Assembly: GCA_964501265.1 (NCBI GenBank)
Contig: CAZCSK010000003.1
Coordinates: 67,480-131,479 of the forward strand
Length of the DNA: 64,000 nucleotides
DNA from: an uncultured Actinomycetes bacterium
GTDB lineage: Bacteria; Actinomycetota; CADDZG01; JAHWKV01
Reading direction: 5' to 3'
Shown: positions 48,431 to 64,000 of the stretch, piece by piece
How the letters are laid out: the number at the start of each line of letters is the position of its first letter
Numbering within the stretch: the stretch's first letter is position 1
Made by a program: the position numbers and the translations under genes
The notes under the pieces: model-generated
Told to the model about the DNA's origin: nothing
Seen by the model: the letters and a program-made list of their open reading frames with translations, nothing else
Database searches by the model: none

Positions 48431-48520
48431 CCTCCCAACCAGGGGGCGCGTGTCTCAATTTTTGCCATTTTTTCTCCATGGCATATGCTTACCGGCGCTC
48501 ACCAATGGGAGGAAGATCGC

Positions 48521-49840: not shown

Positions 49841-51232
49841 ATGCCGGCGCTACCTAAACTGATCGCAAAGACTCCAACAGAGGGAACTCCAAAGACGTGG
49901 AAATTCCCTGGCTTCACTAGAACACAGCTCGATTCAGGCTTCACGATCATCGTCGCCAATGCTCCGGGTCGTACGCTCGCAGTTGCCCAGCTTCTTCTCG
50001 ACGCTGGGGCGAGCAACGAAAAAGCCGAAGAAGGTGGCGTGGCCAACATCACCGCTAACGCGCTACTCGAGGGCACCGATAACCACAAAGGCGAGAAGTA
50101 CGTACAGGCCTTGGAGCGTCTAGGGGCGGACATTGACGGGGGGGCAAACTGGGACTCCTTCGGGCTGAACCTGCGGGCCCCAGTAAGCAGACTGGAGCCA
50201 GCACTCGAACTCTTGGCGGAAGCGGTTCGCAGTCCGGAGCTGCCCTGGCGCGAAGTCGACCGCCTCACGCAGCAAACAGTTGGCGGAATCATGCAGGACT
50301 ATGCAAGCTCAGCCAGCCGCGCGACGATTGCATTCAACAAGCTGATATATACCCCTTCGTCACCATACTCCCGCTCGGCTGGAGGCAGTTTCTGGTCCGT
50401 GAGCACGATGGGTAAAAAGAGCGTCAAGAAGTACTACGAGCGGTTCGCCGCTTCAAGCTCGGCGACGCTCGTCGTGGTCGGAGACCTAGAGGGTGTTCCA
50501 GTCGAAAAAATCGCAGAGAAACTCTTTGGGGGCTGGAAAGGCAAGGACCCGGAGCGGACGCAACTACCGGTAGCCGAGAGCCTCAGACACACCTCTGCGC
50601 TGCTCGTCGAACGGCCTGACTCGACCCAGTCTCAGATCGCGATAGGCCACGTCGGAGTTTCGCGCTCGTCGCCGGACTACCTGCCGGTCCAGATGGTAGC
50701 GACTGCCCTCGGAGGCCTTCCCGACTCCCGTCTCAACCGGAAGCTGAGGGAGGAAAAGGGCTTTACATATGGCATCCAAGCTGGGTTCGACTTCCGACGA
50801 CAGGCCGGACCCTTTCGAATCAGTACGTCAGTTGACACCAACAAAACAGTAGATGCGATTGCAGAGATAGTGAAGGTCCTTGAAAAAGTCCACGATGAAG
50901 GCATCACCAAACAAGAACTCGAGTTGGTAAAAGGCTTTCTCACTGGCATCTTTACCCTTCGTTACGAGACGCCCGAGGCCATCGCATCGGCACTTTCAAG
51001 CTTGGTTACCTATGGGCTACCTGACGACTACTACGCAACCTACAGAGAACAAGTGCAAGAAGTGACGCTAGACGATTGCAATCGGGCCGCGGCCGAGTAC
51101 CTGCATCCCGATCGACTGGGTATCGTCGTGGTTGGCGACGCCAAAAAGGTGCGCGATCCACTCCACTCTGCTGGACTTGGGACTGTGGCCTACATCGAAG
51201 ATCCAGAGCCTGGGAATCCTCCGACACACTAG
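49841..51232 (+). CDS. M16 family peptidase-like protein (non-catalytic partner, no HxxEH)
   Basis: Same fold-level composition as the upstream M16 but lacks the inverzincin motif; typical M16B pair arrangement. Confidence 0.6.
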   Translation: MPALPKLIAKTPTEGTPKTWKFPGFTRTQLDSGFTIIVANAPGRTLAVAQLLLDAGASNEKAEEGGVANITANALLEGTDNHKGEKYVQALERLGADIDGGANWDSFGLNLRAPVSRLEPALELLAEAVRSPELPWREVDRLTQQTVGGIMQDYASSASRATIAFNKLIYTPSSPYSRSAGGSFWSVSTMGKKSVKKYYERFAASSSATLVVVGDLEGVPVEKIAEKLFGGWKGKDPERTQLPVAESLRHTSALLVERPDSTQSQIAIGHVGVSRSSPDYLPVQMVATALGGLPDSRLNRKLREEKGFTYGIQAGFDFRRQAGPFRISTSVDTNKTVDAIAEIVKVLEKVHDEGITKQELELVKGFLTGIFTLRYETPEAIASALSSLVTYGLPDDYYATYREQVQEVTLDDCNRAAAEYLHPDRLGIVVVGDAKKVRDPLHSAGLGTVAYIEDPEPGNPPTH

Positions 51233-51290: not shown

Positions 51291-51793
51291 TTAGGAGCGG
51301 GCTGACAGTTGAACTATCTGCTTGGCTGCTGCGTCTAGATAGACGAGCACTTGTTTACCTGGCTCGGGTGGCGTCACGCCCTGCGCCAGTTTCAGTACGG
51401 TGCCGTCGGCGAACACTGCACGGCCCTTGGCGTCTAATTTGTTGAAGACTCCCGAATACACGACCCTTGGATCTGAGCCGTCTTTGGGTACGACGCCGAT
51501 GCCAGCCACCCATAGGGCCACCTTTGCTTTGTTGACCCCAACGTGAACGTATCGATCTTGCCAGTGGACGAGCGGCGTGACTGTATGTTCATTGGTTGTA
51601 AAGCTCTCGACGCTCTTGGAGATTTCGTACGTCCTGGCGCCATCAAGTGTGATGCTTTCGAAGGTGACAGCGGTAACGACACCTTCATCGGATGGTACGC
51701 GCGGTCCTTTGTCGAGGATGCTCTCGAGGGCGGGAGGGGTTCGCGCGCACGCTATCGCTAGGAGAAAAACAAGAACAGAGAACCTGCGCAATC
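51291..51793 (-). CDS. Probable lipoprotein, unknown function (167 aa)
   Basis: TTG start giving MRRFSVLVFLLAIAC; the ORF-track 5' extension to 52130 rejected (it overlaps the upstream gene). Last gene of the minus-strand supraoperon. Confidence 0.45.
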
Positions 51794-51795
51794 GA

Positions 51796-52815
51796 CTATG
51801 CCGCGGGAGTAACCGTTGAGGTCGAGATTTCGGATGTCTCCTGCGGCGGGGGTGCTGCGTCCGGTGCGGCTTGCGGGCCGAAGATTCCTCGGAGCGGCGC
51901 GGTGAGGGCCGCCGCTGGCAGGACGATCGCCAGCTTCGTATCGCCAAGACGCGAAATTTCAAAGAACATCGTTCGAGGACGGATCGGCTCGCGGGCTTGC
52001 CCCGCTCGAACTGCCGCAAGCAACTGCAACGGATAGCGCGGGCCGTCTCCACGCGCGGCCCGCTTAAAATCCTTGTGAGTCTCGAAGTCAATCTCCTCAG
52101 CAACTTTGATGACCTTGCCGTCAAGCACATAGAAAGACATCTTTCGAAAATGGGCTATTCCCGGCAGTGAGCCGGACGAGCCGCGAGTGCTTCGGGCAGG
52201 CAGGTTGGGAGGTATTACATCAAAGCGCTTGACCCCCGCGTCCTCATTGGGGTGCTCAAAGGGGTCTTCTCTGGGGAAATAATCGGGGCTGTCCTTGTTG
52301 AATTCCACAACACCGGCTGCTTCGGAAATTGACCGCCGAAAATACTGGAATGCGTAGATGGAATCGAGGATGAAATTCTGCCCCACCTGGATAACGCCGC
52401 TGCGGTCGCGGGGTGCGAGCACCGGGGGGGCCCCAGCCGGATCAGAGACCCATTGTCCCGCCTGCAGGGTCTGGGCGACTTTCTTGCTTCCGGCCACCTC
52501 GAGACCCTGAGCTGAGGGCACTTTCGACACATCGGCCACCCGAATGGCTATCGTGTCGTCGGATATGTATTCCTCGAACACTTCCGTATCGTTGAACGTC
52601 AGAAGGGCTCGAGCCCGAAGGTCGTCTTCAACTTCGCCAGTCACTACGGCTTTGCCGGCAGGAGTATCGTCGGTGTAGCTGAAAGCGTGTGGGAGACCCT
52701 CCGATGCCGCCAGAAACTTGAGCACCTTCTCTTCCGCTGTTTCGTCTCTGCTACCGCAGGCAGCGCCAAGCACAATGAGAGTCAGGCAAACTAAAACTGC
52801 AACGAGGCGGCGCAT
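51796..52815 (-). CDS. Probable lipoprotein, unknown function (339 aa)
   Basis: MRRLVAVLVCLTLIVLGAACGS signal + Cys. Start trimmed from 52914 to 52815. Confidence 0.45.
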   Translation of the reverse strand: MRRLVAVLVCLTLIVLGAACGSRDETAEEKVLKFLAASEGLPHAFSYTDDTPAGKAVVTGEVEDDLRARALLTFNDTEVFEEYISDDTIAIRVADVSKVPSAQGLEVAGSKKVAQTLQAGQWVSDPAGAPPVLAPRDRSGVIQVGQNFILDSIYAFQYFRRSISEAAGVVEFNKDSPDYFPREDPFEHPNEDAGVKRFDVIPPNLPARSTRGSSGSLPGIAHFRKMSFYVLDGKVIKVAEEIDFETHKDFKRAARGDGPRYPLQLLAAVRAGQAREPIRPRTMFFEISRLGDTKLAIVLPAAALTAPLRGIFGPQAAPDAAPPPQETSEISTSTVTPAA

Positions 52816-53321
52816 TATTGCAGTTCCAGGGCCACTACTTTGCGCAACAAAGTCCGCGGAAATTCGTAGTCCTGGTGGATGGACAGAATGAACATTCCTC
52901 TGCCGCGAAACCACACAAAGATGTTTTGCTTGTTGCCAGCGGTGGAACTCACGCTTGTGTCCCCCACGCGAAGCTGCGACGGCGTTGTGCCGCCCAGCAG
53001 CGCTGCGATCGATTTGCGGAATCCTTCGCTCTGGGGCCGAGCGAATCTAGAAAGACGGCTCACTTGAAGAGTTGCCCGCAATAGTTCGTCATCGCGCATC
53101 GAGAAAAGCCCGTTTGAGTCGACATATGACTGTTTGATTCCAACCGCTTCCTTTCTGATGTCCTCCGGCTGCACAACAAGGCCCAGAATCTGCTTGGGAA
53201 TCCGAATACCCGATCCTTCGACGAACCCAGCACCGGTGTCAGCCGCCTTCGAGCATCCGGCGGCAACAAGCAATGCGGCACAGGCGAGGGCGACGGCGAT
53301 ACGCGCCGTTGTCTTCCTCAT
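52815..53321 (-). CDS. Probable lipoprotein, unknown function (168 aa)
   Basis: MRKTTARIAVALACAALLVAAGCS signal + Cys. ATGA overlap with the upstream gene. Start trimmed from 53405. Confidence 0.45.
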   Translation of the reverse strand: MRKTTARIAVALACAALLVAAGCSKAADTGAGFVEGSGIRIPKQILGLVVQPEDIRKEAVGIKQSYVDSNGLFSMRDDELLRATLQVSRLSRFARPQSEGFRKSIAALLGGTTPSQLRVGDTSVSSTAGNKQNIFVWFRGRGMFILSIHQDYEFPRTLLRKVVALELQ

Positions 53322-53845
53322 TGAACGGTCAGTTTGGCCCGGATAAAGCCCGCGGCTCGGTCGGTGATTTCCCAGGTTCCGGTTTGTCCAAATGTCTGAG
53401 ACCAAACCGCCCCCGGTTTCATCGGCCCCGAGTCGAAAGCGCCCGAAGCGGTGAAACTGCGGATCGGGCGGCCATCAGTGCGGTCCTCGTTTTTCACCCG
53501 CAGAGTAAATCCCACCGGCATCGTAAAGTCCTGGCCAAGTTCTTTGTTGGGCCCGAACGCGTAGAAGGGACTTTCCTCGACCAGGAAGACGTCAAAGAAC
53601 TTTTCGTCTGGCGCTTTCGTGGGTGCTACTGTCGCGGCTGTTGGCGATGGATTGCCGACACCCAGCTTGTCAGTTGGCTGCGGTGAGGGCTCAGGCGACT
53701 TGCACTCGCCAAGCCGGCACGCAGGAGTTGCATCACCGATCTTGTCCAGATCGATGTCGCCCCCGATGCTGTTGGGTTTTCCGCACGCTGCCCCTATCAT
53801 CGCCAAACAAGCAACTAACACTGTCCATCGCTTCATACTTCTCAT
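53318..53845 (-). CDS. Probable lipoprotein, unknown function (175 aa), beta-rich C-terminal domain
   Basis: MRSMKRWTVLVACLAMIGAACGK signal + Cys. 4-nt overlap with the upstream ABC fusion gene. Confidence 0.45.
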   Translation of the reverse strand: MRSMKRWTVLVACLAMIGAACGKPNSIGGDIDLDKIGDATPACRLGECKSPEPSPQPTDKLGVGNPSPTAATVAPTKAPDEKFFDVFLVEESPFYAFGPNKELGQDFTMPVGFTLRVKNEDRTDGRPIRSFTASGAFDSGPMKPGAVWSQTFGQTGTWEITDRAAGFIRAKLTVQ

Positions 53846-56835
53846 GTTAGGGCACCCGAGCGTTTAATGGCCTCCTCGGAGGTCCCCAGGTACGCCTGGA
53901 TCAGTCGCTCATCGTTCAATACCTCGGCTGGTTGACCGCGCATCAGCACCTTGCCTTGAATCATTGCGACTAGCTCGTCGGAGACGGCCGAGATCAGAGG
54001 CATATCGTGCTCGATTATCAGCATGCTGCACCCCGTCTCGAACCTCACCCGACGAAGGAGTGGCGCAAGCCCCTCCGACTCGGCCTGGGCGATTCCGGTT
54101 GAAGGCTCGTCAAGCAGAAGCACTTTGGGCTCGGCCGCGAGGACGCAGGCAAGGTCGGTGATTCGGCGCAAACCAGTGGAGAGTTCACGCACAAATTTGT
54201 CGCGATATCCCCCAAGGTCAAGCAGTTCGATAAGCCTGTCTGCCCGTAATCGGATGCGGCGCTCCGCCTGTCGCACCTGCGGTACCTGCAGCGCGGTCAG
54301 GGCCATATTGCGAACTTCCAACTTGGGCTCTAGAGCGACAAGTAGGTTTTCGTAAACCGTAAGAGCCGGAAACAGTCTGGCGTCCTGGAAGCGTCTCACC
54401 AAACGCAATTTTGCCCGCTCGTCCGGACGCAGCGAAGAGATGTCGTTCCCATCAAAGATGATCTGGCCCTCGTCGGCGAACTGAAATCCACAAATGATGT
54501 CGAACAAGGTGGTCTTGCCAGCTCCGTTGGGCCCTATCAGCCCGAGTGCTTCGCCCTCACGAAGATCGATACTCACATCCGTCAGAGCGTCGATCCCGCC
54601 GAAACTCTTGCTAATCGAGCGAACCTGCAAGACGGGCCGCGCTTCAGCCAGTTCGAACTGCCGCTGCTCGCGTGCAGACCGCATTGCGCCTGCGGGAGCG
54701 CCATCCGTAAGTGCTCCGGTTCCCTTGACGTAGACAGCGCGCAAGATGTCGGGGCGGCGCATCAGTTCCTCGGTTTTGCCGATGAACTTAACTTCACCCT
54801 TCTCCATGAAGATCGCATGTTCCGCCACTGTCAATGCGACATTGACCGATTGCTCGACGATGATGATCGCCGTTCCCTGGCGGTTGATCGCCCGAACGAC
54901 TTCGATGAGTTGGCCCACCATTGCTGGAGACAATCCCAACGACAGTTCATCGATCATCAATAACTTTGGCTTGGAAAGAAGGGCTTGAGCAAGTGAAAGC
55001 ATCTGTTGCTCTCCGCCCGAGAGCAGACCTGCAAGTTCACTTCCCCGCTCCTTGAGGATTGGGAAAAGCCGGTGAACTTCCTCCATACGCGTCTTCGCGT
55101 CGGCCTTGTCGCTGGACATCCAACCGCCGAGTTCCAGGTTCGCCTTCACCGTCAAACCAGGGAAAACGCCACGCCCTCCAGGCATGTGGATAACTCCTCG
55201 CTGTGTAATCTCGTGAGGAGGCATGTGTGTTATGTCGCGACCGTCGTGAACGATGGCACCTGAAGATGCCTCCTGGGTGCCGCTGATGGCGCGAAGCAGC
55301 GTGGACTTGCCTGCGCCGTTGGTACCGAGTAGGGCAATCGTCTGACCCTCTTCGACATCGAAGTCCACGCCGAAGAGCACCTGTACGTTGTCGTACGCCA
55401 CATCCACATCGCGGCAAACAAGCATCTTGCCTTGGCCCGACGCCTTGGCATAGCGCCATTCCGCCGATGCCGACTGACTGGCCTCAGCCGATCTGACATC
55501 TCTTGCGTACTTGCCTGCCGCACTCAGACTTATCAGGCTTGAAAGGACGATGAAAGGCGTCGCGAATCTAAGAGCTCCTTGAATACCAAAGCGCTGAATG
55601 ATTTCAGCCACGGCGAAAAATTGAATAACGTTCGAAGGGATGCCGGTTAGAACGAAAAGCGACCCACCCTGCGTCCTCACGTGCGCGGGAAGGATGTTCG
55701 CTCTCAATACTCCTCCGGCAGGGCCCAGGAGCGCGCCGCCGATGCCGAACACAATGCTGCTTGCGATAAGTACCGGAAGAGGTGGTGCCGCCGCCAAGAC
55801 CAAAAGAAAGAGTGCCGAGGCGACCCCAAGGAGCCCCGAATACACGAGTACCCGCTGGGGTCGGTAGCGGAGCAAGACATCGATAAGTCCGCCTGACAGG
55901 AAGCCGAACGGCAGCAAGACAAGGGTGATGGCAATGCTGATGTATGCGCGCTCCTTGATACCGAGCCCGTACTCGGCCCTAAGGAACTGCGCAAACAAGA
56001 GCGCATAAATGTAAGTGCCAACGTTGCCCGGAATCGCGGCAAGGAAGAACGTGCGAATGGTCCTGATCGCCCATATTGTTCTGAAGGCCTCGCCGAAGCT
56101 AACTGGCTCCTCAGGTTGGCGCGCCTCCTCCTCGGTGGCGCCGTTTGCTCTCCGCTCCATGTAGCCCCTAATTGGTTCCTTCAGTCCGATGAAAGCGAGT
56201 AGCGTGGCGGCAATCATCAGCGACCCCGAAACCACGAATGGTGACCGCCAACCGAATGTGGTGACCAGATAGACAATGAGCAACGAAGTGGTAACGCTAA
56301 TTGCGTCGAAGGTCACTCCGAATAGGGCGAAGACCTTTCCACGGGAGGTCGCGGGATAGTAGTCGGCGATAAGCGAGGAAATCGGAATTCCGCGAATCTG
56401 CGATCCTAGGTTGTCCCCCATTCGAGAAAGGGCAAGCGGAGTGAGGGAGTACGAGCGCGCTGTAAACAACGAGAAAATGCCACCCAGCGCCGTTCCAATG
56501 GCAACTAGTGGCACCCTCTTATGACGGTCTGCGTAATAACCCAAGCCCAGCGTAGCGAAAATCAAGACAAAACCTGTAAGGCTTGTGGCCTGCACAAGGC
56601 GACTGAGTGTGATTTCCAAATCTCGAATGATCTCAGGAGCGGCCGCACCGAAAATGCCGCCGTCGAAAGCGCTGACGATCCCGAGTAGGACAAAAACCAA
56701 GATCGGCTTCAGGCCGTAAGGAGTGTTTTTAAGTTCCTTGTAGTTCGCGGCCTCTTTGAGCGTGCGCTTGAAGCTGAGTTTGCCCACGGCAAGGGTGCTG
56801 GGCCGGCCCGCGGAAGCATCTTTGACTTCACTCAT
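53842..56835 (-). CDS. Triple fusion: MFS-like 12-TM domain + LivF-type NBD + LivG-type NBD
   Basis: 997 aa. N-terminal hydrophobic domain with MFS-like GYYADRHKRVPL. First NBD Walker A GTNGAGKST (LivF-like), second NBD GLIGPNGAGKTT (LivG-like); each has LSGG signature and Walker B. Confidence 0.65.
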   Translation of the reverse strand: MSEVKDASAGRPSTLAVGKLSFKRTLKEAANYKELKNTPYGLKPILVFVLLGIVSAFDGGIFGAAAPEIIRDLEITLSRLVQATSLTGFVLIFATLGLGYYADRHKRVPLVAIGTALGGIFSLFTARSYSLTPLALSRMGDNLGSQIRGIPISSLIADYYPATSRGKVFALFGVTFDAISVTTSLLIVYLVTTFGWRSPFVVSGSLMIAATLLAFIGLKEPIRGYMERRANGATEEEARQPEEPVSFGEAFRTIWAIRTIRTFFLAAIPGNVGTYIYALLFAQFLRAEYGLGIKERAYISIAITLVLLPFGFLSGGLIDVLLRYRPQRVLVYSGLLGVASALFLLVLAAAPPLPVLIASSIVFGIGGALLGPAGGVLRANILPAHVRTQGGSLFVLTGIPSNVIQFFAVAEIIQRFGIQGALRFATPFIVLSSLISLSAAGKYARDVRSAEASQSASAEWRYAKASGQGKMLVCRDVDVAYDNVQVLFGVDFDVEEGQTIALLGTNGAGKSTLLRAISGTQEASSGAIVHDGRDITHMPPHEITQRGVIHMPGGRGVFPGLTVKANLELGGWMSSDKADAKTRMEEVHRLFPILKERGSELAGLLSGGEQQMLSLAQALLSKPKLLMIDELSLGLSPAMVGQLIEVVRAINRQGTAIIIVEQSVNVALTVAEHAIFMEKGEVKFIGKTEELMRRPDILRAVYVKGTGALTDGAPAGAMRSAREQRQFELAEARPVLQVRSISKSFGGIDALTDVSIDLREGEALGLIGPNGAGKTTLFDIICGFQFADEGQIIFDGNDISSLRPDERAKLRLVRRFQDARLFPALTVYENLLVALEPKLEVRNMALTALQVPQVRQAERRIRLRADRLIELLDLGGYRDKFVRELSTGLRRITDLACVLAAEPKVLLLDEPSTGIAQAESEGLAPLLRRVRFETGCSMLIIEHDMPLISAVSDELVAMIQGKVLMRGQPAEVLNDERLIQAYLGTSEEAIKRSGALT

Positions 56836-56844
56836 CTTTGGCTG

Positions 56845-59190
56845 TCACTCCTGTTCGGTCGTTGGCTCGGTGATGTCGACAAGGCCCGCAGACTCCTCGT
56901 CTTCGGCCTGGATGCTCTTGGCTGCCCCGCCGAAGGCTCGCTCTTCACTGTTCTTGCTCGGCCCGCCGCCCAACATCTTGCCGCGCTCGCCGTAAAGCCC
57001 AGAAATACCCTTATACCGCTGATGGACAGGCAAGAGGGCAAGTCCGGAGTTCGGAATCGTTTCCGCAAGCGGAATAAGCCGTCGGGCTAACGCCAGTGGG
57101 TCGTAGTCGGCAAACAGGCTCGGCACTACCAGTTGCCTTCTTTGAGCGATGATTCGCAGTATCCCGTCGCGAAGACCAAACAGAAGCGAAGCCAGGCCGC
57201 CGGGCGCGAAGTAAAGCAGGGCCAAGACGCCGACGCTACCAACCAGGAAGGGCAGAGAACCAGTCGTGGGCAAGAACTGGGTAAGCGCAAAATAGCCCGC
57301 TCCCAGCAAGGCGCCCGGAACCGAACCAACCCCTCCGACTACGGTGAAGAGGAATATCTGGAAGCCCAAGAATGGGTCAAAAGAGGACTCAGCGACAGCC
57401 CTTTGGTGAACCGCCAGGAGAACTCCGCAGAAACCGCAGAGCAGCCCGGAAAAAGCGAATGCTGCAAGTCGCGTCCTTACAAGATTGACGCCGAACGATT
57501 GAATATTGGCTTCATTCTCCCGAGCAGCGATCAGCACCCTGCCAACCCTACTGCGCCGAAGCACCGACACCAGCGCGATAGCCAACAGCAAACCGCTTAG
57601 AGCAAGGTAATACATGCTTCGCTCATCTTCGAAATCAATAAATTGAAACAAGCTCGGGCGATCGACGCGGTCGGGCAAAAGCCACCCGAAATATTCCTCC
57701 TTAAAGAGCGTCGCGTTGATGGCGAAAGCAAATGCGGTAGTAGTGACTGCCAAGAACAGGCCTTTGATTCGCAGGGCCGGGAAACCAACGAGAACCGCGA
57801 AGACAGCAGTCAGGATTGGAGCGAGGGGTAGTGCTACCCAGAAAGAATATTTCGAGGCAATGGCTCCGCCTATGACTGCCCCTACCGCAACAAACGCGAA
57901 TTGGCCAAGGCTCACCTGCCCGGCCCACCCCGTCAGTACGACCAACGACAGCGAAGTTATGGCAACAATCAGTAGATAGCCAGAAAGGTTCACTTGGCGG
58001 GGCGAGAGAACGAACGGAAGACCGACGAGGGCCAAGACTCCAACTGCAATTAGGGCCCGCCGCCACACCCGCACTCCACCAACTTCCAACATCTCCTTGG
58101 GGGTGGCTCGCTGCTCCTCGGTAGCCTTCCAAGCCGTCGTTTCGCCGGCCTCACTTCTAGTTACGCGACGGCGCTGGAACAGGAGCGCCCCAATGATCGC
58201 GAACAACATCCCAACCTCCAAGAGCGCCAAATGTTGTTCGTAACTCCACTTGACCGCCTCGCGAAGAACAGAAAGCCCGATTGCCGAGGCAATAGCAATC
58301 GGAAAGCTGTACATCCTGGCAATGACGGCCGCCGCAAGCGCCCCCAAAAGCACCTCGGGGGAAGAAATTCCTGAACTAAAGCTCCCCGAAACGCCGCCCG
58401 TAAGAATTACCCCAAGGCCCGAGAGCGCTCCCGCGATCGTCCATACCACCATCGAGAGCGTCCCAACGTTGATTCCTAAAAGGCGCGCCCGTTCCGCGTT
58501 CTCCGAGGAGGCACGAATGGCATACCCGAGCCGCGAGTACCGCAGAAACAGCACCAGCGCAATCATCGCGGCGACCGAAGCGAAGATGGCGAACAGATGA
58601 GGAAACCCGAAGCTCAGTCGGTTCGAACCAATTTGGAATTTGAAGTCGTTGAAAGGAAACGTCACAAGCACTTGCCCTTGGATTTGCTCCACCGTGCGGT
58701 CCGCGGGCGGTGGGAAGATGGGAAGCGTGGTCACGTATCCAATCGCTCCCCCGAGCACGCCGAGAGTCGCGATAGTCAGTACCGTAAGCACAAGCCGCGG
58801 GGCGTTGAAGAAGCGCCTGATAAGGGCGATCTCTATAAGGAAACCAAGGAATGCTGACACGATCACGCCGCCCAAAGCAGCCAAAAGGAATGGCCATTTA
58901 TTGAGAACGGCGAGATTGTAGGTAAATACACCCCCAGCGGCGCCAAGGGCGCCTTGGGAGAAATTGATGATACGGGTTGACCTGTAAATGAGAACGATCC
59001 CGACGGCAATCAAACCCGTAAGAAGTCCTGCAATCAAGCCCTGAAATAGGATCGCCAGGGGGGTTCCGTTCTCGGAACCGGTTCCAGGTAAGACTAGCTG
59101 GGTGATGACCAGAACACCGGCGCCAGCAGCTACTCCGATGACAATCGACCGAATCTTCTCGCTCTTGAGGCCCAGGGCGGCGGTAGCCAT
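56845..59190 (-). CDS. Fused LivH/LivM-type ABC permease (781 aa)
   Basis: Two tandem polytopic Liv-permease-like domains separated by a charged linker; paralogue of 13554-15542. Confidence 0.7.
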   Translation of the reverse strand: MATAALGLKSEKIRSIVIGVAAGAGVLVITQLVLPGTGSENGTPLAILFQGLIAGLLTGLIAVGIVLIYRSTRIINFSQGALGAAGGVFTYNLAVLNKWPFLLAALGGVIVSAFLGFLIEIALIRRFFNAPRLVLTVLTIATLGVLGGAIGYVTTLPIFPPPADRTVEQIQGQVLVTFPFNDFKFQIGSNRLSFGFPHLFAIFASVAAMIALVLFLRYSRLGYAIRASSENAERARLLGINVGTLSMVVWTIAGALSGLGVILTGGVSGSFSSGISSPEVLLGALAAAVIARMYSFPIAIASAIGLSVLREAVKWSYEQHLALLEVGMLFAIIGALLFQRRRVTRSEAGETTAWKATEEQRATPKEMLEVGGVRVWRRALIAVGVLALVGLPFVLSPRQVNLSGYLLIVAITSLSLVVLTGWAGQVSLGQFAFVAVGAVIGGAIASKYSFWVALPLAPILTAVFAVLVGFPALRIKGLFLAVTTTAFAFAINATLFKEEYFGWLLPDRVDRPSLFQFIDFEDERSMYYLALSGLLLAIALVSVLRRSRVGRVLIAARENEANIQSFGVNLVRTRLAAFAFSGLLCGFCGVLLAVHQRAVAESSFDPFLGFQIFLFTVVGGVGSVPGALLGAGYFALTQFLPTTGSLPFLVGSVGVLALLYFAPGGLASLLFGLRDGILRIIAQRRQLVVPSLFADYDPLALARRLIPLAETIPNSGLALLPVHQRYKGISGLYGERGKMLGGGPSKNSEERAFGGAAKSIQAEDEESAGLVDITEPTTEQE

Positions 59191-60173
59191 CAGGACCTAA
59201 AGTATTCGGGTAGAGGAGCGAAGATATTCAGCGCGCCAATGTTTTGGGTTGTTGTGAGTCTGGCGCTGGACTCAAAAACGTTCTCGAATGCGATGTACCC
59301 ACCAAATTGAGTTGCCACGGAGTAGTTGTAATCGATTGAATAGCTTGTCCCGCTGGGAGCCGTGTATTGCTGATCACCGTCCACGAACCAGCTGTCTATC
59401 ACGACGCCGCACACATCCACCCGCTTGCGACCTGTGACTGTGCCCGTCTGCCTTAGCACTGCCAGCGACCCGCCATCTACTCCCGCATTGTTGTCGCCCA
59501 GGGTTAGGCCGGCTCGCACTGGCAGAGGGAGAATCTTAATGGATGGCTCAGGCGTGAAGGTTGTAGGGGTCCTGTCGTCAAGGCTTGAGTACTCACTGAT
59601 TCTGGTGAGAAATATTCCGTCGGCGCTCCCCCCATCCTGAACGATTTCAAAGTCCTGAACTATGACCCTGAACTGTCCTCCACGAACTCGGAATTCGCCC
59701 ACCCAGAATCTGGAGCCAGTAGCCGTTACTTGCCGGATTCCACCGATTCCCTTGCCGCTGTCGGTGGTGCTGGTCTGAGTCACCCCTTGAGCATTGGTGG
59801 TCGTAACCGTTGCTCGCCATCGATACAGGCCCTCCTTTGGCAAACCCTTGACCGAGGTGGAGGCCTCCTCTTCGGGAAAGGTCTGATCTGAAGCTTTGGG
59901 GCAAGACTCCTGAGGGGGTTGCGGGGGCTTCGTCACAACGGCCTTAGTGGTTGGACTAGGACTCGGCTTGCTTGCCTCCTGCACTTCAAACTCCCCGAAA
60001 CTCGGAGGAGCCACCGGCTCAGGAAGCGGGGGCACTCCGAAGACGAGACCGGCAGTGACGGCCTTCACCGCAACTCCCGATGGCGGAATCTTAAGGCACG
60101 CCGACAAGGCGAAGATCACAGACGTCAAAAGAAGGGCGGATGCCCGACGGCTACGCAGCTTTGCGCGAGACAA
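59190..60173 (-). CDS. Lipoprotein, unknown function (327 aa); not a recognisable Peripla_BP_6 SBP
   Basis: Canonical lipobox FALSAC after a basic N-terminus. Pro-rich linker then beta-rich domain. Overlaps the TgpA-like gene 3' end by 23 nt. Confidence 0.45.
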   Translation of the reverse strand: MSRAKLRSRRASALLLTSVIFALSACLKIPPSGVAVKAVTAGLVFGVPPLPEPVAPPSFGEFEVQEASKPSPSPTTKAVVTKPPQPPQESCPKASDQTFPEEEASTSVKGLPKEGLYRWRATVTTTNAQGVTQTSTTDSGKGIGGIRQVTATGSRFWVGEFRVRGGQFRVIVQDFEIVQDGGSADGIFLTRISEYSSLDDRTPTTFTPEPSIKILPLPVRAGLTLGDNNAGVDGGSLAVLRQTGTVTGRKRVDVCGVVIDSWFVDGDQQYTAPSGTSYSIDYNYSVATQFGGYIAFENVFESSARLTTTQNIGALNIFAPLPEYFRS

Positions 60174-62409
60174 CTTTAAGCTCCCTTCTCGACGGTGCGT
60201 TCAGCGTAGGGGCGTAGGGATGACGCAAGGACAATTTGGAAATTATTGCAACGGCTCTGAGGGTAACGGTGTGGGCTTGGCCCATCCGCCGTCTGAGGGC
60301 ACGGGAGAGTTCTTCCGCTGCAGCCGCATCCTCGACAGTGACCTGTTCCTGCAGATCTCCCCACAGAGTTCGAGTTACCAACCATGCGAGTTCAGTGTGC
60401 TCGTCGTCTGGAATCACGCGGTCCAAGAACATGAGCGGCGTATCTCCCTGATACCGATATCCAAAGTCTGTTGCGAGATCTCGAAATTCGGCATATGCAA
60501 GCCCGATCCTTTCCCTTACTCCACTCTGTAGCGCCCACGTGCGGCGCCGCGCCCGACGATAGGCCTTGACGACCCCGGGTATTGAGAAATAGATGATGGC
60601 GATCAGCGTGATAAATGGCAAGGCCACCAGAACTGCGTAGCGAATCTGCTCGAACAAGAATCGCTCGGGGTCGGTAGCCACGGGGAAAAACACCTTGACG
60701 GATATGTCATCGCTGGGAAGTAGGTTGCGATCCGCCTGGGTCTGGTCTGCGCCTATGTTGGTGGTCGACTGGCGTGGAGTTCCGATGATCGGCAGCCACT
60801 TGTAGCCAGTGAAGTAAACCTCAAGAAAAGAGGCGCCATGCTTGGGACGTACCTCGACCACGTCCCCCACTCGGTCACCCCCATCAAATCCATACCCCAT
60901 GCGCGAGGGCACTCCAGCCCACCTGGCAAGCATGGCCTGTCCAGCAACAATCTCGTATGGGGTGCCCTTGTGACTGCCCGCAAGCATGTCCTGCACCCGA
61001 TCCGGCGGCACTGCCTTCGGTCGACCCTGGCCGTCCGCTATAACGATGTCCAAGAACTCGTTGCGGACGAAGTCGAGTCGGTCCCACAATGGCTCTTTTG
61101 GCGCCTTCGCAAGAAGGGCCCTCACTGCTGGCGGAGGGTCGGGAATTTCAAGAAACTGACCGATGGCCTTTGGTGGATCTGCGTTCACATTTTGCAGTTC
61201 CTCAACGGTTGGGATGCGCGCGGCGGTAACTGTGTATTTCTGGCCCGCCTCAACCTGGCCTTCAGCGAGTCGGATAGTCCCGGCCCTTTTGTCGTAAGCA
61301 AGGAATGGGCCGTCGGCGACAACTCCAGCAAGGTTTGGAAGTCCGGGGAGAACGGCGCCCTCCATATCGACGATTTCGAAGGAAGCTTTGATGCCTTGGG
61401 ACAGTTCACTGTCGACGATGCCGGACGGGTCAACTTCTTCAATCTGGCTGTCCTTAAATGCCGGCAATCGCCACTCTTCGCCATCGTACACATCCAAGCC
61501 TCCCATGCGCCAGGGACCCGTGATCGACGACTTCGCGGTAAAGAGAACCCGGTCGCGAACGTTGTCGAGCGGGATGTATTTGGGCTTCTGGGCCTCCTGC
61601 GCGGGGTCGTATATGGGAGGCGGAAACAAGAAATCAGTGTTCAGAGCCAAGAACCCGAGCGCTCCAGTGATCCCGAGAATCAGAGGGACTGCTCGGGCCG
61701 CTCGCCGCAGTTCGTATCCTAAGGATCGCTGCTCCGCATCGCCGGTGATATCGACCCCGGAGAGAAGCCCAAGTCCCACCGCAAACATGGCGAAGGCAAT
61801 AAGACCGCTAACAATCTTGGCGTTGCCGGGAACGCTGATCGCTGCAATCATAACAACGGGCAAGGACGAGAGGATGCCAAGCGACGGCCGCCGGAGTTCA
61901 ATTGCCACCCAAGCCCCCGCGAACCCTAGTCCACCCATCAGCCAACCCACGATTGCGCGCCATCCCAAATCGAAGGGCACCGGCGGGCGTAGCACATCGC
62001 CCGACGTCACTGACCGCCTCACGAAGGCCCCGAGGTCGACTATGTCGTTGAACGATCCGGCCGGCAAACTGATGATGACTCCGGCCATGACAATCCCGCC
62101 AATGATTGCAAGATTGGAAAGGATCGCATTCTTTAGACGACGCGCGAGGATTGCTACTGCGATGCCTATAAGTCCGGCGATGGCTGCCCAGAACCTCGGT
62201 GTTATTCCCTTGAAAATGCCGCCCACCATGACGGCAGCGGCCAGGATTGGAAACGCCATGACTATCCCAAGGCGCAATGCCGGGATCGGAAATTCCTGTT
62301 TTTCTTCTTCGAAGACGAGGTCGCCCTCGGGACGCTCTTCCTCGAGATGCTCTAACGCGTGTTCCTCGAGTTCCTCCAGTTCGGAATGCGCTTCGCCGCG
62401 AAGCGCCAT
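60151..62409 (-). CDS. TgpA-like transglutaminase-domain membrane protein (DUF3488 N-terminal TMs + transglutaminase-like core + DUF4129-like C-terminus); catalytic Cys apparently absent
   Basis: About 6 N-terminal TM helices. Core region GTPYEIVAGQAMLARWAGVPSRMGYGFDGG aligns to TgpA G-x-C-E-x-F...G-I-P-A-R-x-V-x-G-Y but with no Cys. Follows DUF58 and MoxR genes as in the canonical triad. Confidence 0.6.
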   Translation of the reverse strand: MALRGEAHSELEELEEHALEHLEEERPEGDLVFEEEKQEFPIPALRLGIVMAFPILAAAVMVGGIFKGITPRFWAAIAGLIGIAVAILARRLKNAILSNLAIIGGIVMAGVIISLPAGSFNDIVDLGAFVRRSVTSGDVLRPPVPFDLGWRAIVGWLMGGLGFAGAWVAIELRRPSLGILSSLPVVMIAAISVPGNAKIVSGLIAFAMFAVGLGLLSGVDITGDAEQRSLGYELRRAARAVPLILGITGALGFLALNTDFLFPPPIYDPAQEAQKPKYIPLDNVRDRVLFTAKSSITGPWRMGGLDVYDGEEWRLPAFKDSQIEEVDPSGIVDSELSQGIKASFEIVDMEGAVLPGLPNLAGVVADGPFLAYDKRAGTIRLAEGQVEAGQKYTVTAARIPTVEELQNVNADPPKAIGQFLEIPDPPPAVRALLAKAPKEPLWDRLDFVRNEFLDIVIADGQGRPKAVPPDRVQDMLAGSHKGTPYEIVAGQAMLARWAGVPSRMGYGFDGGDRVGDVVEVRPKHGASFLEVYFTGYKWLPIIGTPRQSTTNIGADQTQADRNLLPSDDISVKVFFPVATDPERFLFEQIRYAVLVALPFITLIAIIYFSIPGVVKAYRRARRRTWALQSGVRERIGLAYAEFRDLATDFGYRYQGDTPLMFLDRVIPDDEHTELAWLVTRTLWGDLQEQVTVEDAAAAEELSRALRRRMGQAHTVTLRAVAIISKLSLRHPYAPTLNAPSRRELKVVSRKAA

Positions 62410-63770
62410 TACCGGTTACCTGCGCCGATGTCGTGGTACAGGGCAGTGGCAAGATCCTGTCCCGGATGCACAGAGGAAACTTGGCATCCAAGCGAAGCCG
62501 CTCGTCCGACGGTGTCGGCATTCTCGTCGTCCCACAAAAGCGCTATCACTAAGATTGAAATGCCCTTGTTCAAAAGGATGCGGAGTTGGGCCGCAGCCGT
62601 TATGTCGAGTTTCGGCGTGATCAGAATGTTGTGAGCATCGCGGCGCGTATCCGAAATCTTTCGCGTGATCGCCTGAGTCAACGGCTCACGACCCATTTCA
62701 ACACGAGCGAACGCGTCGAGAGCGCGCAGTTGCGTTTCCGCGCCACGCATGTGCCGCGTCAAGGGACCACCATTCGCCTCGAGGCGAATCTCATAACCCT
62801 CGCGCAAGTGGCGGACGGCAAGCGAAGCAGCGGCCCGCACACCGGTTTCAAAAGATTCCGAGTGGTCGCCGTCTTTGGAGTGGGAGCCACGGTCGGTATC
62901 CAAAATTATCGTGACGTGGTCGGTGATGCCCTGCTCAGCTTCGCGAACCATCAATTTCCCCGTGCGGGCAGATGCACGCCAGACAACACGCCGCAGGTCG
63001 TCGCCACGCACGTACTCGCGCATTCCGTAGAACTCAAGGCCAGAAGGCCACGGTTTGGACACCGGTGGGCGGATGGGCGGGTCTTCGTACTGGCGAGTTA
63101 AGGGGCGGTCTGACACAAACTCGATGCGCGGGTGAACCATCAATTCGAACTTCTCTGCGATCACGTTCTCGCGCTCGGTCAGGCCTAGGGGGTCGCTTGT
63201 TACGGCAACCAGGGGGCCTACTTCGTACACACCACGCCGACTGCAACGCAAACCGTAACGGTGAGAAACAGTGCGGTCTCGGGACAATTTGGGAATAGGC
63301 ACCTTGACCTTGGTTCCTAGCCGCTCCGGAAGCCGTTCTTCCAAAGTGAATGCGCCAATCCGGCGCTTTGCTGTGAGTTGCACCTCCACCTCCATGCGGT
63401 CTCCCTCGCGGGCCCGGGGGTAAAGACCAGCACGGATGCCTTCAAGTTTCAGTTTGCGTGGCGCCAACAAGTAGCTCGTCACGACAAGAAGAAAGGCACC
63501 GTAAGCAAACAGATAGAGGGCCTTGCCCGCAACAATAAAGGCAACTAGCCAGGTTAAGAGGGCAGCGACGATGGCCAGAACGCCCGAACGCGTAAGTCCT
63601 ATTTTTCGCTGGACGGCCTGGGAAACGAGCCTTATGTTGTGAGGCGCAAGCACCGCGGTTGTTCGGTCGACGAAAAGAAGAAACTTGCCCTTCCGACCTA
63701 TGCTGGTCGCGATTTTGCGCGTGGGAGTCTTGCCCTTCTTGGTTTCGCCCGACCTAGACAGCTTTGCCAA
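62409..63770 (-). CDS. DUF58 (vWA-like) domain protein
   Basis: DUF58 signature EFYGMREYVRGDDLRRVVWRASARTGKLMVRE. N-terminal TM helices. TTG start with GAGGAAGGAAA RBS. Confidence 0.7.
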   Translation of the reverse strand: MAKLSRSGETKKGKTPTRKIATSIGRKGKFLLFVDRTTAVLAPHNIRLVSQAVQRKIGLTRSGVLAIVAALLTWLVAFIVAGKALYLFAYGAFLLVVTSYLLAPRKLKLEGIRAGLYPRAREGDRMEVEVQLTAKRRIGAFTLEERLPERLGTKVKVPIPKLSRDRTVSHRYGLRCSRRGVYEVGPLVAVTSDPLGLTERENVIAEKFELMVHPRIEFVSDRPLTRQYEDPPIRPPVSKPWPSGLEFYGMREYVRGDDLRRVVWRASARTGKLMVREAEQGITDHVTIILDTDRGSHSKDGDHSESFETGVRAAASLAVRHLREGYEIRLEANGGPLTRHMRGAETQLRALDAFARVEMGREPLTQAITRKISDTRRDAHNILITPKLDITAAAQLRILLNKGISILVIALLWDDENADTVGRAASLGCQVSSVHPGQDLATALYHDIGAGNR

Positions 63771-63813
63771 GTTTTTCCTTCCTCACCTACTTACTTGCTT
63801 ACTTGGACTTTAG

Positions 63814-64000
63814 CTATGACTTGGACTTGCCGCCACCGCTCGGAGGCTTCACCTTGCTCACGAATCGCTCGATGGCCGCGTCGATGGTCTCGCCTCTTAG
63901 TATTGCATCAGGATTCAAAATAATCCTGTGCGAAAGGATGGGCACTAAGACCTGCCTAACATCGTCAGGATAGACATCTTCTCTTCCATCGCTCGCGGCA
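63814..64000 (-). CDS. MoxR-family AAA+ ATPase, C-terminal fragment (gene continues beyond window end)
   Basis: Translation of the minus strand gives ...REDVYPDDVRQVLVPILSHRIILNPDAILRGETIDAAIERFVSKVKPPSGGGKSKS*, matching the MoxR C-terminal lid region. Confidence 0.55.
   Translation of the reverse strand, partial: AASDGREDVYPDDVRQVLVPILSHRIILNPDAILRGETIDAAIERFVSKVKPPSGGGKSKS

Follow-up and report, generated by a model that had tools for sequence, protein, structure and literature searches.

The archetype of the HAAT importers (TC 3.A.1.4) is the E. coli LivHMGF transporter with its binding proteins LivJ and LivK, and its building blocks recur at the locus described here: LivH-like and LivM-like BPD_transp_2 domains, a heterodimeric ATPase made of a LivF-like and a LivG-like domain (H-loops EQ in LivF and EH in LivG) and, putatively, a Peripla_BP_6-type binding protein. 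However, the parts are joined differently. In the present case LivH and LivM form one chain and LivF and LivG another, a membrane domain of the major facilitator superfamily (MFS) with 12 transmembrane helices (TMs) is placed ahead of LivF, and the binding protein is a TM-anchored polypeptide of 565-630 aa, most members of which are missed by Pfam. Moreover, all scores against the LivF, LivG, LivH and LivM equivalog models lie far under the cut-offs.

Two further systems resemble the locus in part. The UrtABCDE transporter provides the top NCBIfam models, UrtE and UrtD, for the two nucleotide-binding domains (NBDs). The UrtD score of 292.7 is nevertheless under the cut-off of 304.1, and the UrtE score of 302.4 (cut-off 285.8) is inflated, as it represents a whole-protein sum over two NBDs. 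The permease reaches only 63.6 bits with UrtB (cut-off 250) and 82.9 bits with UrtC (cut-off 296), and genes for UrtA and urease are absent at the locus. For these reasons, assignment to the urea transporters was rejected. In structural comparison, the AlphaFold model of the entire fusion protein is matched best by the tandem-NBD subunits of mycobacterial OppABCD and DppABCD (PDB 8j5q_D and 8wdb_D), in which a single polypeptide of a binding-protein-dependent importer likewise carries two ABC ATPase domains. However, these importers form a separate ABC family, with BPD_transp_1 permeases and SBP_bac_5 binding proteins, and their ATPases lack a fused membrane domain.

The window, i.e. the whole stretch of 64,000 nucleotides that was analyzed, contains the following genes around the fusion; the last entry lies beyond the window end, on contig L001 of the same genome.

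51291..51791, minus strand: lipoprotein-like ORF of ~166 aa, TTG start, lipobox AIAC, conserved synteny
51796..52815, minus strand: lipoprotein-like ORF of ~339 aa, start MRRLV, lipobox GAAC, conserved synteny
52815..53321, minus strand: lipoprotein-like ORF of ~168 aa, start MRKTT, lipobox AAGC, conserved synteny
53318..53845, minus strand: lipoprotein-like ORF of 175 aa, signal ...MIGAAC-GK
53842..56835, minus strand: fusion gene, intact ORF with ATG start, 997 aa
56845..59190, minus strand: fused LivH-LivM permease, 781 aa, two BPD_transp_2 matches (Pfam, E=1.8e-54)
59190..60173, minus strand: lipoprotein X, 327 aa, lipobox Cys26
60151..62409, minus strand: TgpA-like multi-TM transglutaminase-like protein, 752 aa (Pfam TgpA_N E=5e-12, Transglut_core E=3e-5)
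62409..63770, minus strand: DUF58 protein, 453 aa (Pfam DUF58 E=6e-10)
63814..64000, minus strand: MoxR AAA+ ATPase, C-terminal ~62 codons, cut by the window end, mapped from L001
L001:1-1810, minus strand: gene of the anchored Peripla_BP_6-like binding protein, ~1 kb past the window end

A preliminary description of this DNA had placed a fused LivHM permease beside the fusion gene. Indeed, both halves of the permease are BPD_transp_2 domains, the first matched by LivH/UrtB models (aa 47-338) and the second by LivM/UrtC models (aa 368-667; NCBIfam). Its stop codon lies 9 nt ahead of the fusion ATG, and all related loci likewise have a LivHM gene directly upstream of the fusion. The candidate binding protein possesses an N-terminal TM-helix anchor and is very divergent. 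Homologues are encoded at 39 of the 41 MFS-type loci with enough flanking sequence and at all nine MFS-less sister loci for which this could be judged (9/9). The Pfam scan of the window-type homologue itself was negative and the family profile produced only a weak match in the PDB (E=0.09 to a LivJ-like solved protein). However, the homologue of Actinomarinicola tropica scores above the Peripla_BP_6 cut-off (34.5 versus 31.7 bits, E=2e-8), and the window-type homologue aligns with it over 487 aa (BLASTP E=2e-25). The window-type protein is therefore a putative binding protein by homology to one Pfam-positive member. As regards the substrate, a census of the flanking genes revealed no consistent metabolic partner.

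In MFS-less sister systems LivFG is either free-standing or fused directly to LivHM, often as a single LivH-LivM-LivF-LivG polypeptide. Since LivFG accompanies LivHM in these sisters, the MFS domain would have been added to an importer that was complete without it, and since the putative cognate binding protein is encoded just past the window, the system at hand would be a complete HAAT importer plus this extra domain.

The domains of the fusion protein follow each other in the order MFS domain, linker helix, LivF-like NBD and LivG-like NBD:

55522..56709, minus strand: MFS domain, aa 43-438, 12 TM helices (Pfam E=6e-27, AlphaFold helices)
56065..56184, minus strand: central cytoplasmic loop between TM6 and TM7, aa 218-257, best-conserved element of the MFS part
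55441..55518, minus strand: linker helix between TM12 and NBD1, aa 440-465, 26 residues, a single continuous helix in the AlphaFold model
54730..55428, minus strand: NBD1, LivF/UrtE-like, aa 470-702 (NCBIfam LivF and UrtE models, PDB 1ji0)
54637..54729, minus strand: inter-NBD linker, aa 703-733, first part predicted disordered
53845..54636, minus strand: NBD2, LivG/UrtD-like, aa 734-997 (NCBIfam LivG and UrtD models, PDB 1g9x, Pfam)

The claim that a LivF-like and then a LivG-like ATPase are carried by one polypeptide held up. Pfam found two ABC_tran matches (E=2.9e-60). LivF/UrtE-type NCBIfam models cover aa 470-703, and in sequence comparison the Thermotoga LivF-type protein (PDB 1ji0) matches aa 474-702 with E=1e-57. 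LivG/UrtD-type models cover aa 733-985, the LivG protein MJ1267 (PDB 1g9x) matches aa 733-984, and BCA_ABC_TP_C gave a weak match at the C-terminus of NBD2. Each NBD has retained its Walker A motif (GTNGAGKS in NBD1, GPNGAGKT in NBD2), ABC signature (LSGGE; LSTGLRR), the D-E pair of Walker B (LLMIDE; VLLLDE) and the H-loop typical of its family (VEQ; IEH). The linker between the NBDs is variable (conservation 0.25), with pLDDT values below 50 for aa 703-719.

The preliminary description had named a frameshift or an assembly artefact as a condition under which its hybrid architecture would fall. Could a frameshift, a chimeric assembly or a lost stop codon have joined separate MFS, livF and livG genes? 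Split forms do occur: the relative P0001 encodes its LivG-like part in a gene of its own, and this half is the sole part ever seen split off. However, the identical 997-aa protein is present in an independent assembly, the junction helix is conserved, and the frame is uninterrupted in hundreds of homologues from different samples, including one complete isolate genome. A profile search retrieved 326 protein clusters at E<=1e-60, and MFS_1 together with ABC_tran is present in all of the best 120 of them, so that the architecture searched for belongs to a large family with at least these 120 clusters. Fusion lengths in the best 120 clusters are ~970-1090 aa, the exception being one ORF of 1430 aa that includes MoxR. 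With clustering at 50% identity, 38 of the 150 top-ranking representatives are 900 aa or longer and contain two Walker A motifs. MFS domain and NBD1 share one frame without a stop codon between them in 49/49 determinable metagenome loci. These loci and the best 120 clusters effectively refute an assembly artefact, which we consider practically excluded.

Carriers of the fusion number hundreds and are mostly uncultured Actinomycetota; A. tropica, represented by the complete isolate genome, is the one cultured carrier. Judged from these homologues, the fusion is obligate and old. In public databases the family bears uninformative names such as 'MFS transporter' or 'branched-chain amino acid transport system ATP-binding protein', and a literature search found no published study of an MFS-LivFG fusion.

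The N-terminal domain likewise proved to be what had been proposed, a 12-TM MFS domain with motif A. Pfam matches the N-terminal part to MFS_1 (94.9 bits versus a cut-off of 33.4, E=6.1e-27, aa 49-345 and beyond), and BPD_transp_2 has no match within the 997-aa fusion, so that the first 420 aa do not represent a BPD_transp_2 fold. The AlphaFold model (mean pLDDT 80.7) places 12 TM helices in aa 43-438, arranged as 6+6 around the central cytoplasmic loop with pLDDT values of ~85-92. Both termini of the domain are assigned to the inside. The C-terminus must be cytoplasmic, as the chain runs on into the NBDs, and the density of lysine plus arginine is 0.18 in segments predicted inside versus 0.12 in those outside. 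Motif A (consensus G-x-x-x-D-R-x-x-R-R/K) in the TM2-TM3 loop reads G99-Y-Y-A-D103-R104-H-K-R107; in alignments of 36 and 58 homologues, D103 and R107 never vary and R104 is conserved to 97-100%, all three being invariant in the set of 58. A second motif-A-like loop is present (G316..D318..R323-P-x-R326). Invariant or nearly invariant residues occur in both motif-A loops as well as between TM4 and TM5 (D158, R165) and between TM10 and TM11 (P383, R387), and both gating loops are invariant across homologues that are only 34-56% identical. From this pattern, the MFS domain looks to be under selection and conformationally competent. Conserved motif A and cytoplasmic loops are equally expected for an ordinary, independent MFS carrier.

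NCBIfam offers no named subfamily into which the domain fits (AAHS, DHA1/2, ACS, OPA and others). The nearest are the aromatic acid/H+ symporters (PcaK, MhpT; E=7e-13) and UhpC (E=1e-8), a protein in which the MFS fold is used as a signalling device. Scores of 35-48 bits against cut-offs of 400-560 put the domain outside these families, the best model, aromatic acid/H+ symporter, reaching 48 bits where 418.6 are required and all others less. In contrast to the fusion described here, neither the symporters nor UhpC are joined to an ATPase.

These relationships bear on the idea that two transporters share one chain, with the MFS domain working independently as a secondary carrier, either to move the same substrate with low affinity and high capacity or to export a product or a toxic analogue, and with the fusion to LivFG serving co-expression and co-localization only. 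It would fit the intact motif A and other generic MFS motifs, the proximity to aromatic-acid/H+ symporters and drug exporters among the named families, and the existence of free-standing relatives of the domain, which are ordinary genes such as P0083 (469 aa) beside a patatin gene. However, an operon alone would give co-expression, and yet the fusion is never undone in the 49 determinable loci. A proton-coupled carrier with a fixed substrate should also display a conserved titratable or polar residue in mid-membrane, but no such position reaches >=80% conservation in the homologue alignments. Finally, conservation peaks in the central loop and the linker helix, a pattern uncommon among MFS carriers. 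We regard independent transport by the MFS domain as fairly unlikely.

The mean top-residue frequency is 0.53 in the central loop and 0.49 in the linker helix and thereby exceeds that of every TM helix (0.34-0.45). The loop carries the family motif L-K-E-P-x-R-G-Y-x-E-R-R ... E-P-x-S-F-G-E-A-x-R. Six of its residues (P221, R223, G224, G232, E249 and R252) do not vary among the 58 sequences of alignment A3, and in the more diverse alignment A2 strict invariance is confined to R223, G224 and E249. Within the linker helix, D446 is invariant.

A membrane domain followed by an NBD across a short rigid helix mimics the layout of ABC half-transporters, and one could accordingly imagine the MFS domain as a third translocation pathway whose alternating access is powered by the NBD dimer. 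The conserved cytoplasmic face would agree with this, and there is a precedent in the arsenite pump ArsAB, in which a membrane carrier able to act as secondary transporter is likewise combined with an ATPase and thereby turned into a pump. ArsA falls outside the ABC ATPases and ArsB outside the MFS, and the two are separate subunits; moreover, that pump operates without a second, complete ABC permease. In the fusion, LivH and LivM are expected to occupy the coupling grooves of LivF and LivG, the covalent link involves just one half of the MFS domain, and no coupling-helix-like element was identified. An ATP-driven MFS pathway is thus very unlikely.

Further hints come from the genomic neighborhood. 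The 3' portion of the window encodes adjacent MoxR, DUF58 and multi-TM transglutaminase-like proteins, i.e. a three-gene module of the TgpA/YebA type; the full MoxR gene (L001:1985-3022) is matched by Pfam bpMoxR, AAA_3, AAA_5 and AAA_lid_2. The MoxR-DUF58/vWA-transglutaminase module has been described (PMC3495828, PMC12067865), and neither paper mentions an ABC transporter. Lipoprotein X, which travels with TgpA, has two invariant cysteines (Cys91 and Cys255), a linker rich in proline and an all-beta domain. On the other side, the start of the 175-aa ORF overlaps the fusion stop codon by 4 nt, and homologues occupy the same position in seven related loci (L002, L004, L006, L008, L009, L014 and L017), those in L014 and L017 being genes of 158-173 aa. 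In Pfam, the ORFs at 53318..53845, 51796..52815 and 51291..51791 have no match and the one at 52815..53321 has no significant match. A simple nutrient importer would not account for such strong linkage to MoxR-DUF58-TgpA and five lipoprotein genes.

The MoxR/TgpA block is found only with MFS-bearing systems, in 19/33 loci as compared to 0/8 MFS-less loci (Fisher p=0.004, not corrected for phylogeny), and one ORF, P0171, runs on from NBD2 into MoxR. Both observations would suit a passive anchor or assembly scaffold, in which an MFS fold devoid of transport function tethers the NBDs or docks proteins of the cluster, the candidates being TgpA, DUF58/MoxR and the anchored binding protein. The frequent fusion of the NBDs to LivHM in MFS-less sisters likewise suggests that tethering is favored in the clade, and the lack of conserved cavity residues points the same way. 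However, 12 helices with gating loops that stay invariant at 34-56% identity far exceed the needs of an anchor, and 14 of the 33 judged MFS-bearing loci as well as the A. tropica locus are devoid of the MoxR/TgpA block. A mere scaffold is therefore rather improbable.

The same neighbors could also be partners of a cell-envelope machine, in which LivHM and MFS-LivFG export or flip a hydrophobic or lipid-linked substrate, or transmit ATP-driven force, in concert with the transglutaminase-like enzyme TgpA, MoxR/DUF58 and the lipoproteins. Lipoprotein X might then act as a LolA/LprG-like carrier, by analogy to the mycobacterial LprG-Rv1410c pair of a lipoprotein and an MFS protein. We consider this scenario distinctly improbable.

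Our preferred reading, to which we assign a probability of roughly 0.4, is that the fusion is the energizing subunit of a binding-protein-dependent HAAT importer and that its MFS domain serves as a transceptor-like regulator. We infer the composition of the complex and the direction of transport as follows. The importer would comprise the fused LivH-LivM permease, the MFS-LivFG polypeptide and the anchored Peripla_BP_6-like binding protein. In this lineage the LivF-like and LivG-like ATPases are fused in tandem, and the tandem may have gained, at its N-terminus, a complete 12-helix domain whose ancestors were free-standing MFS carriers of one family. The ABC part would operate like an ordinary Liv importer, in which the binding protein hands the substrate to LivHM and closure of the LivF-LivG dimer on ATP drives translocation. 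Beside LivHM in the membrane, the MFS domain would constitute a third, accessory membrane domain that has retained its rocker-switch machinery.

An extra membrane domain N-terminal to a canonical ABC core is likewise found in ABCC/SUR proteins. Their TMD0 is thought to serve regulation or partner binding rather than the main pathway; it is a 5-helix bundle without transporter ancestry. In contrast, the domain described here has the complete fold of an MFS carrier and is joined to the NBDs rather than to the TMDs.

In the proposed importer, the rigid, conserved helix would tie the MFS domain to NBD1, with the conserved cytoplasmic face turned towards the ATPases and probably in contact with them. 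Because both the rigid linker and the cytoplasmic face are conserved, we propose that the conformational or ligand state of the MFS domain is signalled to the NBD dimer, e.g. for trans-inhibition by internal substrate. The evidence thus narrows the roles originally listed (regulatory sensor, second pathway or scaffold) without settling the choice, and a regulatory role appears most likely from the conservation pattern. Taken together, sequence comparisons indicate that the MFS-LivFG fusion is a real, uncharacterized hybrid of the two main transporter classes, in which the MFS domain may regulate the pump in a transceptor-like manner instead of merely anchoring it.

The reading frame at positions 53842 to 56835 (minus strand) comprises 997 codons without interruption. 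Its product had been described beforehand as an MFS-like domain fused to a LivF-like and then a LivG-like nucleotide-binding domain (NBD), and domain scans as well as structure prediction bear this out. In the Pfam scan, the N-terminal part was assigned to MFS_1 (E=6.1e-27; 94.9 bits, gathering score 33.4) and ABC_tran was matched twice (E=2.9e-60). No match to BPD_transp_2 was found in the protein, and the N-terminal part is thus assigned to the MFS and not to the Liv permease fold that had been considered as the alternative. NCBIfam models of the LivF/UrtE type cover residues 470–703 and those of the LivG/UrtD type residues 733–985. The closest solved relatives are the LivF-type protein 1ji0 of Thermotoga for NBD1 (aa 474–702, E=1e-57) and the LivG protein MJ1267 of Methanocaldococcus (1g9x) for NBD2 (aa 733–984). 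Both NBDs carry Walker A, the ABC signature and the D-E pair of Walker B (with E630 in NBD1 and E910 in NBD2); their H-loops read VEQ, which is typical of LivF, and IEH, which is typical of LivG. With these catalytic motifs complete, both ATP sites look competent.

An AlphaFold2 model of the fusion protein, computed with 58 homologues as input, reached a mean pLDDT of 80.7 and values of 85–92 in the membrane part. It shows twelve long helices (aa 43–438) in a 6+6 arrangement with a central loop at aa 218–257, followed by a single continuous helix of 26 residues after TM12 (aa 440–465; the linker helix), NBD1, a partly disordered linker (aa 703–733) and NBD2. Fold searches with the whole model yielded matches that were all driven by the NBDs, with nothing on the MFS part; the top matches were mycobacterial OppD and DppD, which are likewise tandem NBD chains. 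The motif-A-like pattern G-x-x-x-D-R-x-K-R noted in the preliminary description is present as G99-Y-Y-A-D-R-H-K-R107. By sequence, fold and motif A, the N-terminal domain is therefore a member of the MFS, and it belongs to no described subfamily: among the NCBIfam models of named MFS subfamilies none fits, the best being that of the aromatic-acid/H+ symporters with 48 bits against a cut-off of 418. The fused permease reported next to the gene was found as well. The LivHM gene (56845 to 59190, minus strand) lies 9 nt upstream and encodes a LivH-LivM fusion of 781 aa with two BPD_transp_2 halves.

A frameshift or an assembly join had been raised as a trivial explanation of this architecture. However, an independent assembly contains an identical protein, and homologues with the same uninterrupted architecture number in the hundreds, which renders an artefact virtually impossible. 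When the MFS part alone served as query, an exhaustive HMMER search returned 53 representatives at E<=1e-30. Among the best 150 representatives (50% identity clusters), 38 had a length of at least 900 aa and two Walker A motifs, and about 15 further ones combined the MFS domain with one NBD. A profile built from 36 full-length members retrieved 326 clusters at E<=1e-60; all of the best 120 of these contain MFS_1 and ABC_tran and measure 970–1090 aa, except for one ORF of 1430 aa that includes MoxR. A LivHM profile was further used to collect 80 metagenome loci. The MFS domain is present in 61 and absent in 11 of them, 8 being too short to judge, and in all 49 judgeable loci it shares one stop-free frame with NBD1, and with NBD2 if the contig reaches that far. 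Only the LivG-like half was ever seen as a separate gene, for instance in the homologue P0001. Taken together, the fusion is real and its initial interpretation is supported.

Carriers are Acidimicrobiia or Acidimicrobiales, Microthrixaceae, unclassified Actinomycetota and MAGs of Candidatus Dormibacteria. A single cultured carrier is among them, Actinomarinicola tropica, in whose complete genome (CP045851.1) the gene lies at about 2,017,406-2,020,414. Members are deposited as ‘MFS transporter’, ‘branched-chain amino acid transport system ATP-binding protein’ or ‘ABC-type ... ATPase component/MFS family permease’, and annotation pipelines have therefore seen both halves. In the full-text literature searched, in which subscription journals are sparsely represented, no description of a fusion between an MFS domain and ABC ATPases was found, nor were ABC ATPases bearing a complete secondary-carrier fold. 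We know of no characterized ABC system whose ATPases carry such a fold; the TMD0 of ABCC proteins is likewise an extra N-terminal membrane domain.

Gene tables listed no Peripla_BP_6 protein and had suggested a system without a binding protein. This was overturned by A. tropica, in which a divergently oriented gene adjoining LivHM encodes a Peripla_BP_6 protein of 565 aa, and by homologues of the latter at nearly all loci. These homologues (565–630 aa), which have diverged strongly from Peripla_BP_6, share an N-terminal TM anchor with the motif R-Y-x-P ... L-P-S-A-L and a Cys-rich extracytoplasmic domain, the cysteines being conserved (alignment A6). Of the MFS-type loci with sufficient flanking sequence, 39 of 41 have one, as do 9/9 loci of MFS-less sister systems. 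Apart from the A. tropica member, none is detected by Pfam, so that the putative binding protein of these transporters goes unnoticed in current annotation. The window-type protein matches its Pfam-positive A. tropica counterpart by BLASTP at 2e-25 over 487 residues, and the family profile finds a marginal match in the PDB, a solved LivJ-like protein (E=0.09). The following members were located in the window's own genome (contig L001) and in two related loci:

L001:1-1810, minus strand: putative binding-protein gene of the window's genome, on the opposite strand just past MoxR, about 1 kb outside the window
L004:888-2756, minus strand: further family member
L018:5400-7097, minus strand: further family member

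With these homologues at nearly all loci, all parts of a Liv/Urt-type (HAAT) importer appear to be present, plus the MFS domain. The two permease domains and the LivF/LivG-type ATPase pair of the family are found, and the transporter is predicted to work like a HAAT importer. Scores of its subunits stay far below the Liv equivalog cut-offs of NCBIfam, and assignment to the urea (Urt) system was rejected on curated cut-offs.

In the MFS-less sisters, LivF-LivG are either free or fused straight to LivHM. Six such loci (L042, L044, L052, L058, L066 and L087) encode LivH-LivM-LivF-LivG as one chain of ~1250–1340 aa, for which a single stop-free frame was confirmed; chains of this kind represent a full-length single-chain HAAT transporter. 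Stop-free frames of 1500–1835 aa had also suggested a giant LivH-LivM-MFS-LivF-LivG polypeptide. This was rejected because the LivHM and MFS frames differ, the long frames being high-GC read-through in another frame.

The LivHM gene precedes the fusion gene in every locus. In the window, the operon runs on the minus strand in the order MoxR (cut at 64000), DUF58, TgpA-like transglutaminase protein, lipoprotein X, LivHM, MFS-LivF-LivG and four lipoprotein-like ORFs, with stops and starts that overlap or nearly abut. Its flanking features are:

59190-64000, minus strand: MoxR-DUF58-TgpA-X block
51291-53845, minus strand: four lipoprotein-like ORFs (~175, 168, 339 and 166 aa), directly downstream of the fusion gene
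48485-49828 and 49841-51232, plus strand: pair of M16 (insulinase-type) peptidase genes, just past the lipoprotein genes
42564-44393, minus strand: prolyl-oligopeptidase-family S9 peptidase gene, past the lipoprotein genes

The block also lies beside LivHM/MFS-LivFG in the related loci L002, L004, L006, L008–L015, L017, L019 and L021 and in 19 of the metagenome loci (L022–L101). Nine genome loci and several metagenome loci have the gene order of the window, with only 38–51% identity in the MFS part. Distant members (Dormibacteria and others) have the swapped order LivHM, MFS-LivFG, MoxR, DUF58, TgpA, X; relative to the transporter genes, the block is thus upstream in loci like the window and downstream in those of Dormibacteria type, still adjacent in both. 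Among judgeable loci, it accompanies 19/33 MFS-type versus 0/8 MFS-less systems (Fisher p=0.004, uncorrected for phylogeny). This association speaks for the reading of the MFS domain as a passive anchor, or as a platform on which the MoxR/TgpA module, for instance, might dock. The block is absent in A. tropica and in many loci in which the putative binding-protein gene comes straight after the fusion gene, and we consider this reading distinctly unlikely. The triad of MoxR, vWA/DUF58 and transglutaminase is known and unexplained; a membrane-proximal protein-processing system has been proposed (PMC3495828), and its occurrence in mycobacteria and bifidobacteria is the subject of a further discussion (PMC12067865). 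An ABC transporter is mentioned in neither paper, and no description of a Liv-type transporter linked to MoxR/TgpA was found in the full-text literature searched, which covers few subscription journals.

Protein P0171 (L019:1886-6178) is one ORF of 1430 aa reading MFS-NBD-NBD-MoxR. Either transporter and MoxR are truly joined here, as a Rosetta-stone fusion, or the metagenome scaffold contains a frameshift or has lost a stop.

Including X, the cluster holds five lipoprotein genes. The four downstream ORFs have overlapping or abutting stops and starts, are syntenic in related Acidimicrobiia loci and gave no significant Pfam match. The transporter could also be a machine for envelope export or a flippase that works together with TgpA, X and these lipoproteins, a reading that we regard as quite improbable. 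X itself was rejected as a novel binding protein, since it is predicted to adopt an all-beta LolA/LprG-like barrel fold rather than a periplasmic-binding-protein fold and goes with TgpA, not with the transporter; its family profile matched no PDB sequence. In swapped-order loci, X is followed by an SBP_bac_5 gene for a peptide/oligosaccharide-type binding protein (L015:16346-18052, L021:19465-21363, L050:21796-22095), for which no BPD_transp_1 permease partner is encoded in the vicinity; in L015, this gene is followed by one for a Peptidase_S15. A Pfam census of 75 flanking genes at 15 loci without MoxR revealed no consistent metabolic partner from which a substrate could be inferred, the most frequent families being alpha/beta hydrolase (5), TetR (4), acyl-CoA-synthetase-like AMP-binding (3) and luciferase-like monooxygenase (3).

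Evidence on the role of the MFS domain is evolutionary. The domain is conserved about as well as LivHM and was never seen in degraded or detached form; judged from this record, it is under purifying selection. Positions conserved at >=80% lie nearly all on the cytoplasmic side: D103, R104 and R107 in motif A, D158-Y-Y and R165 in the TM4-5 loop, E220, P221, R223, G224, R228, G232, E249 and R252 in the central loop, P326 in a second motif-A-like loop, P383 and R387 in the TM10-11 loop, and D446 in the linker helix. Mean top-residue frequencies of the central loop (0.53) and the linker helix (0.49) exceed that of every TM helix (0.34–0.45). In MFS carriers, the central loop is usually the most variable part, the reverse of what is seen here. 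At the same threshold, none of the polar or titratable mid-membrane residues is conserved. Set beside this pattern, a second pathway that works independently of the importer appears unlikely. An MFS domain truly driven by ATP we regard as highly improbable.

Free-standing relatives of the MFS domain with ~28% identity exist as ordinary genes. One of them, P0083 (L102:717-3224; 469 aa, ~28% identical, no NBD), retains the D-x-D-I start of the helix that follows TM12; its gene adjoins genes for a patatin-like phospholipase and a ChsH2-like hydratase. An ancestral free MFS carrier gene may have been fused to livFG. The MFS domain would have been retained as a module that is conformationally active and communicates with the ATPase dimer through its cytoplasmic surface and rigid tether, and its role would be regulatory and transceptor-like, trans-inhibition being one example. 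Trans-inhibition of other ABC importers operates via C-terminal NBD domains, which LivFG lack. A transceptor-like regulatory module that talks to the ATPase dimer appears to be the most economical fit, with a probability of about 0.4. A broader formulation has the MFS domain wired mechanically or allosterically into the ABC ATPase cycle, its alternating-access state gating hydrolysis or the NBDs driving it, in a machine tied in most lineages to MoxR-DUF58-TgpA and X; this we judge rather unlikely.

In conclusion, under-studied Actinomycetota widely carry a putative HAAT importer to which an accessory MFS domain is fused and which is misleadingly named in databases. Acidimicrobiia and related Actinomycetota of soil and water, all poorly studied, harbour the family in abundance; its database names hide the architecture, so that metabolic reconstructions of carriers mis-assign it. 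The two largest classes of transporters, ABC pumps and MFS carriers, are usually treated as separate mechanistic worlds. Here, their covalent union is under selection in hundreds of lineages, with fused LivHM and the putative anchored binding protein as obligate partners. The architecture is likely to surprise transport specialists; the mechanism is what we infer, and the cultured carrier A. tropica makes the question testable. The conserved neighbourhood provides a new functional handle on the MoxR-DUF58-TgpA module. If the MFS domain is wired into the ABC cycle, this would be the first case of a transporter whose secondary-carrier fold and ABC engine form one machine. Should the domain control the ATPase, or be powered by it, a principle new to the control or energization of transporters would emerge.
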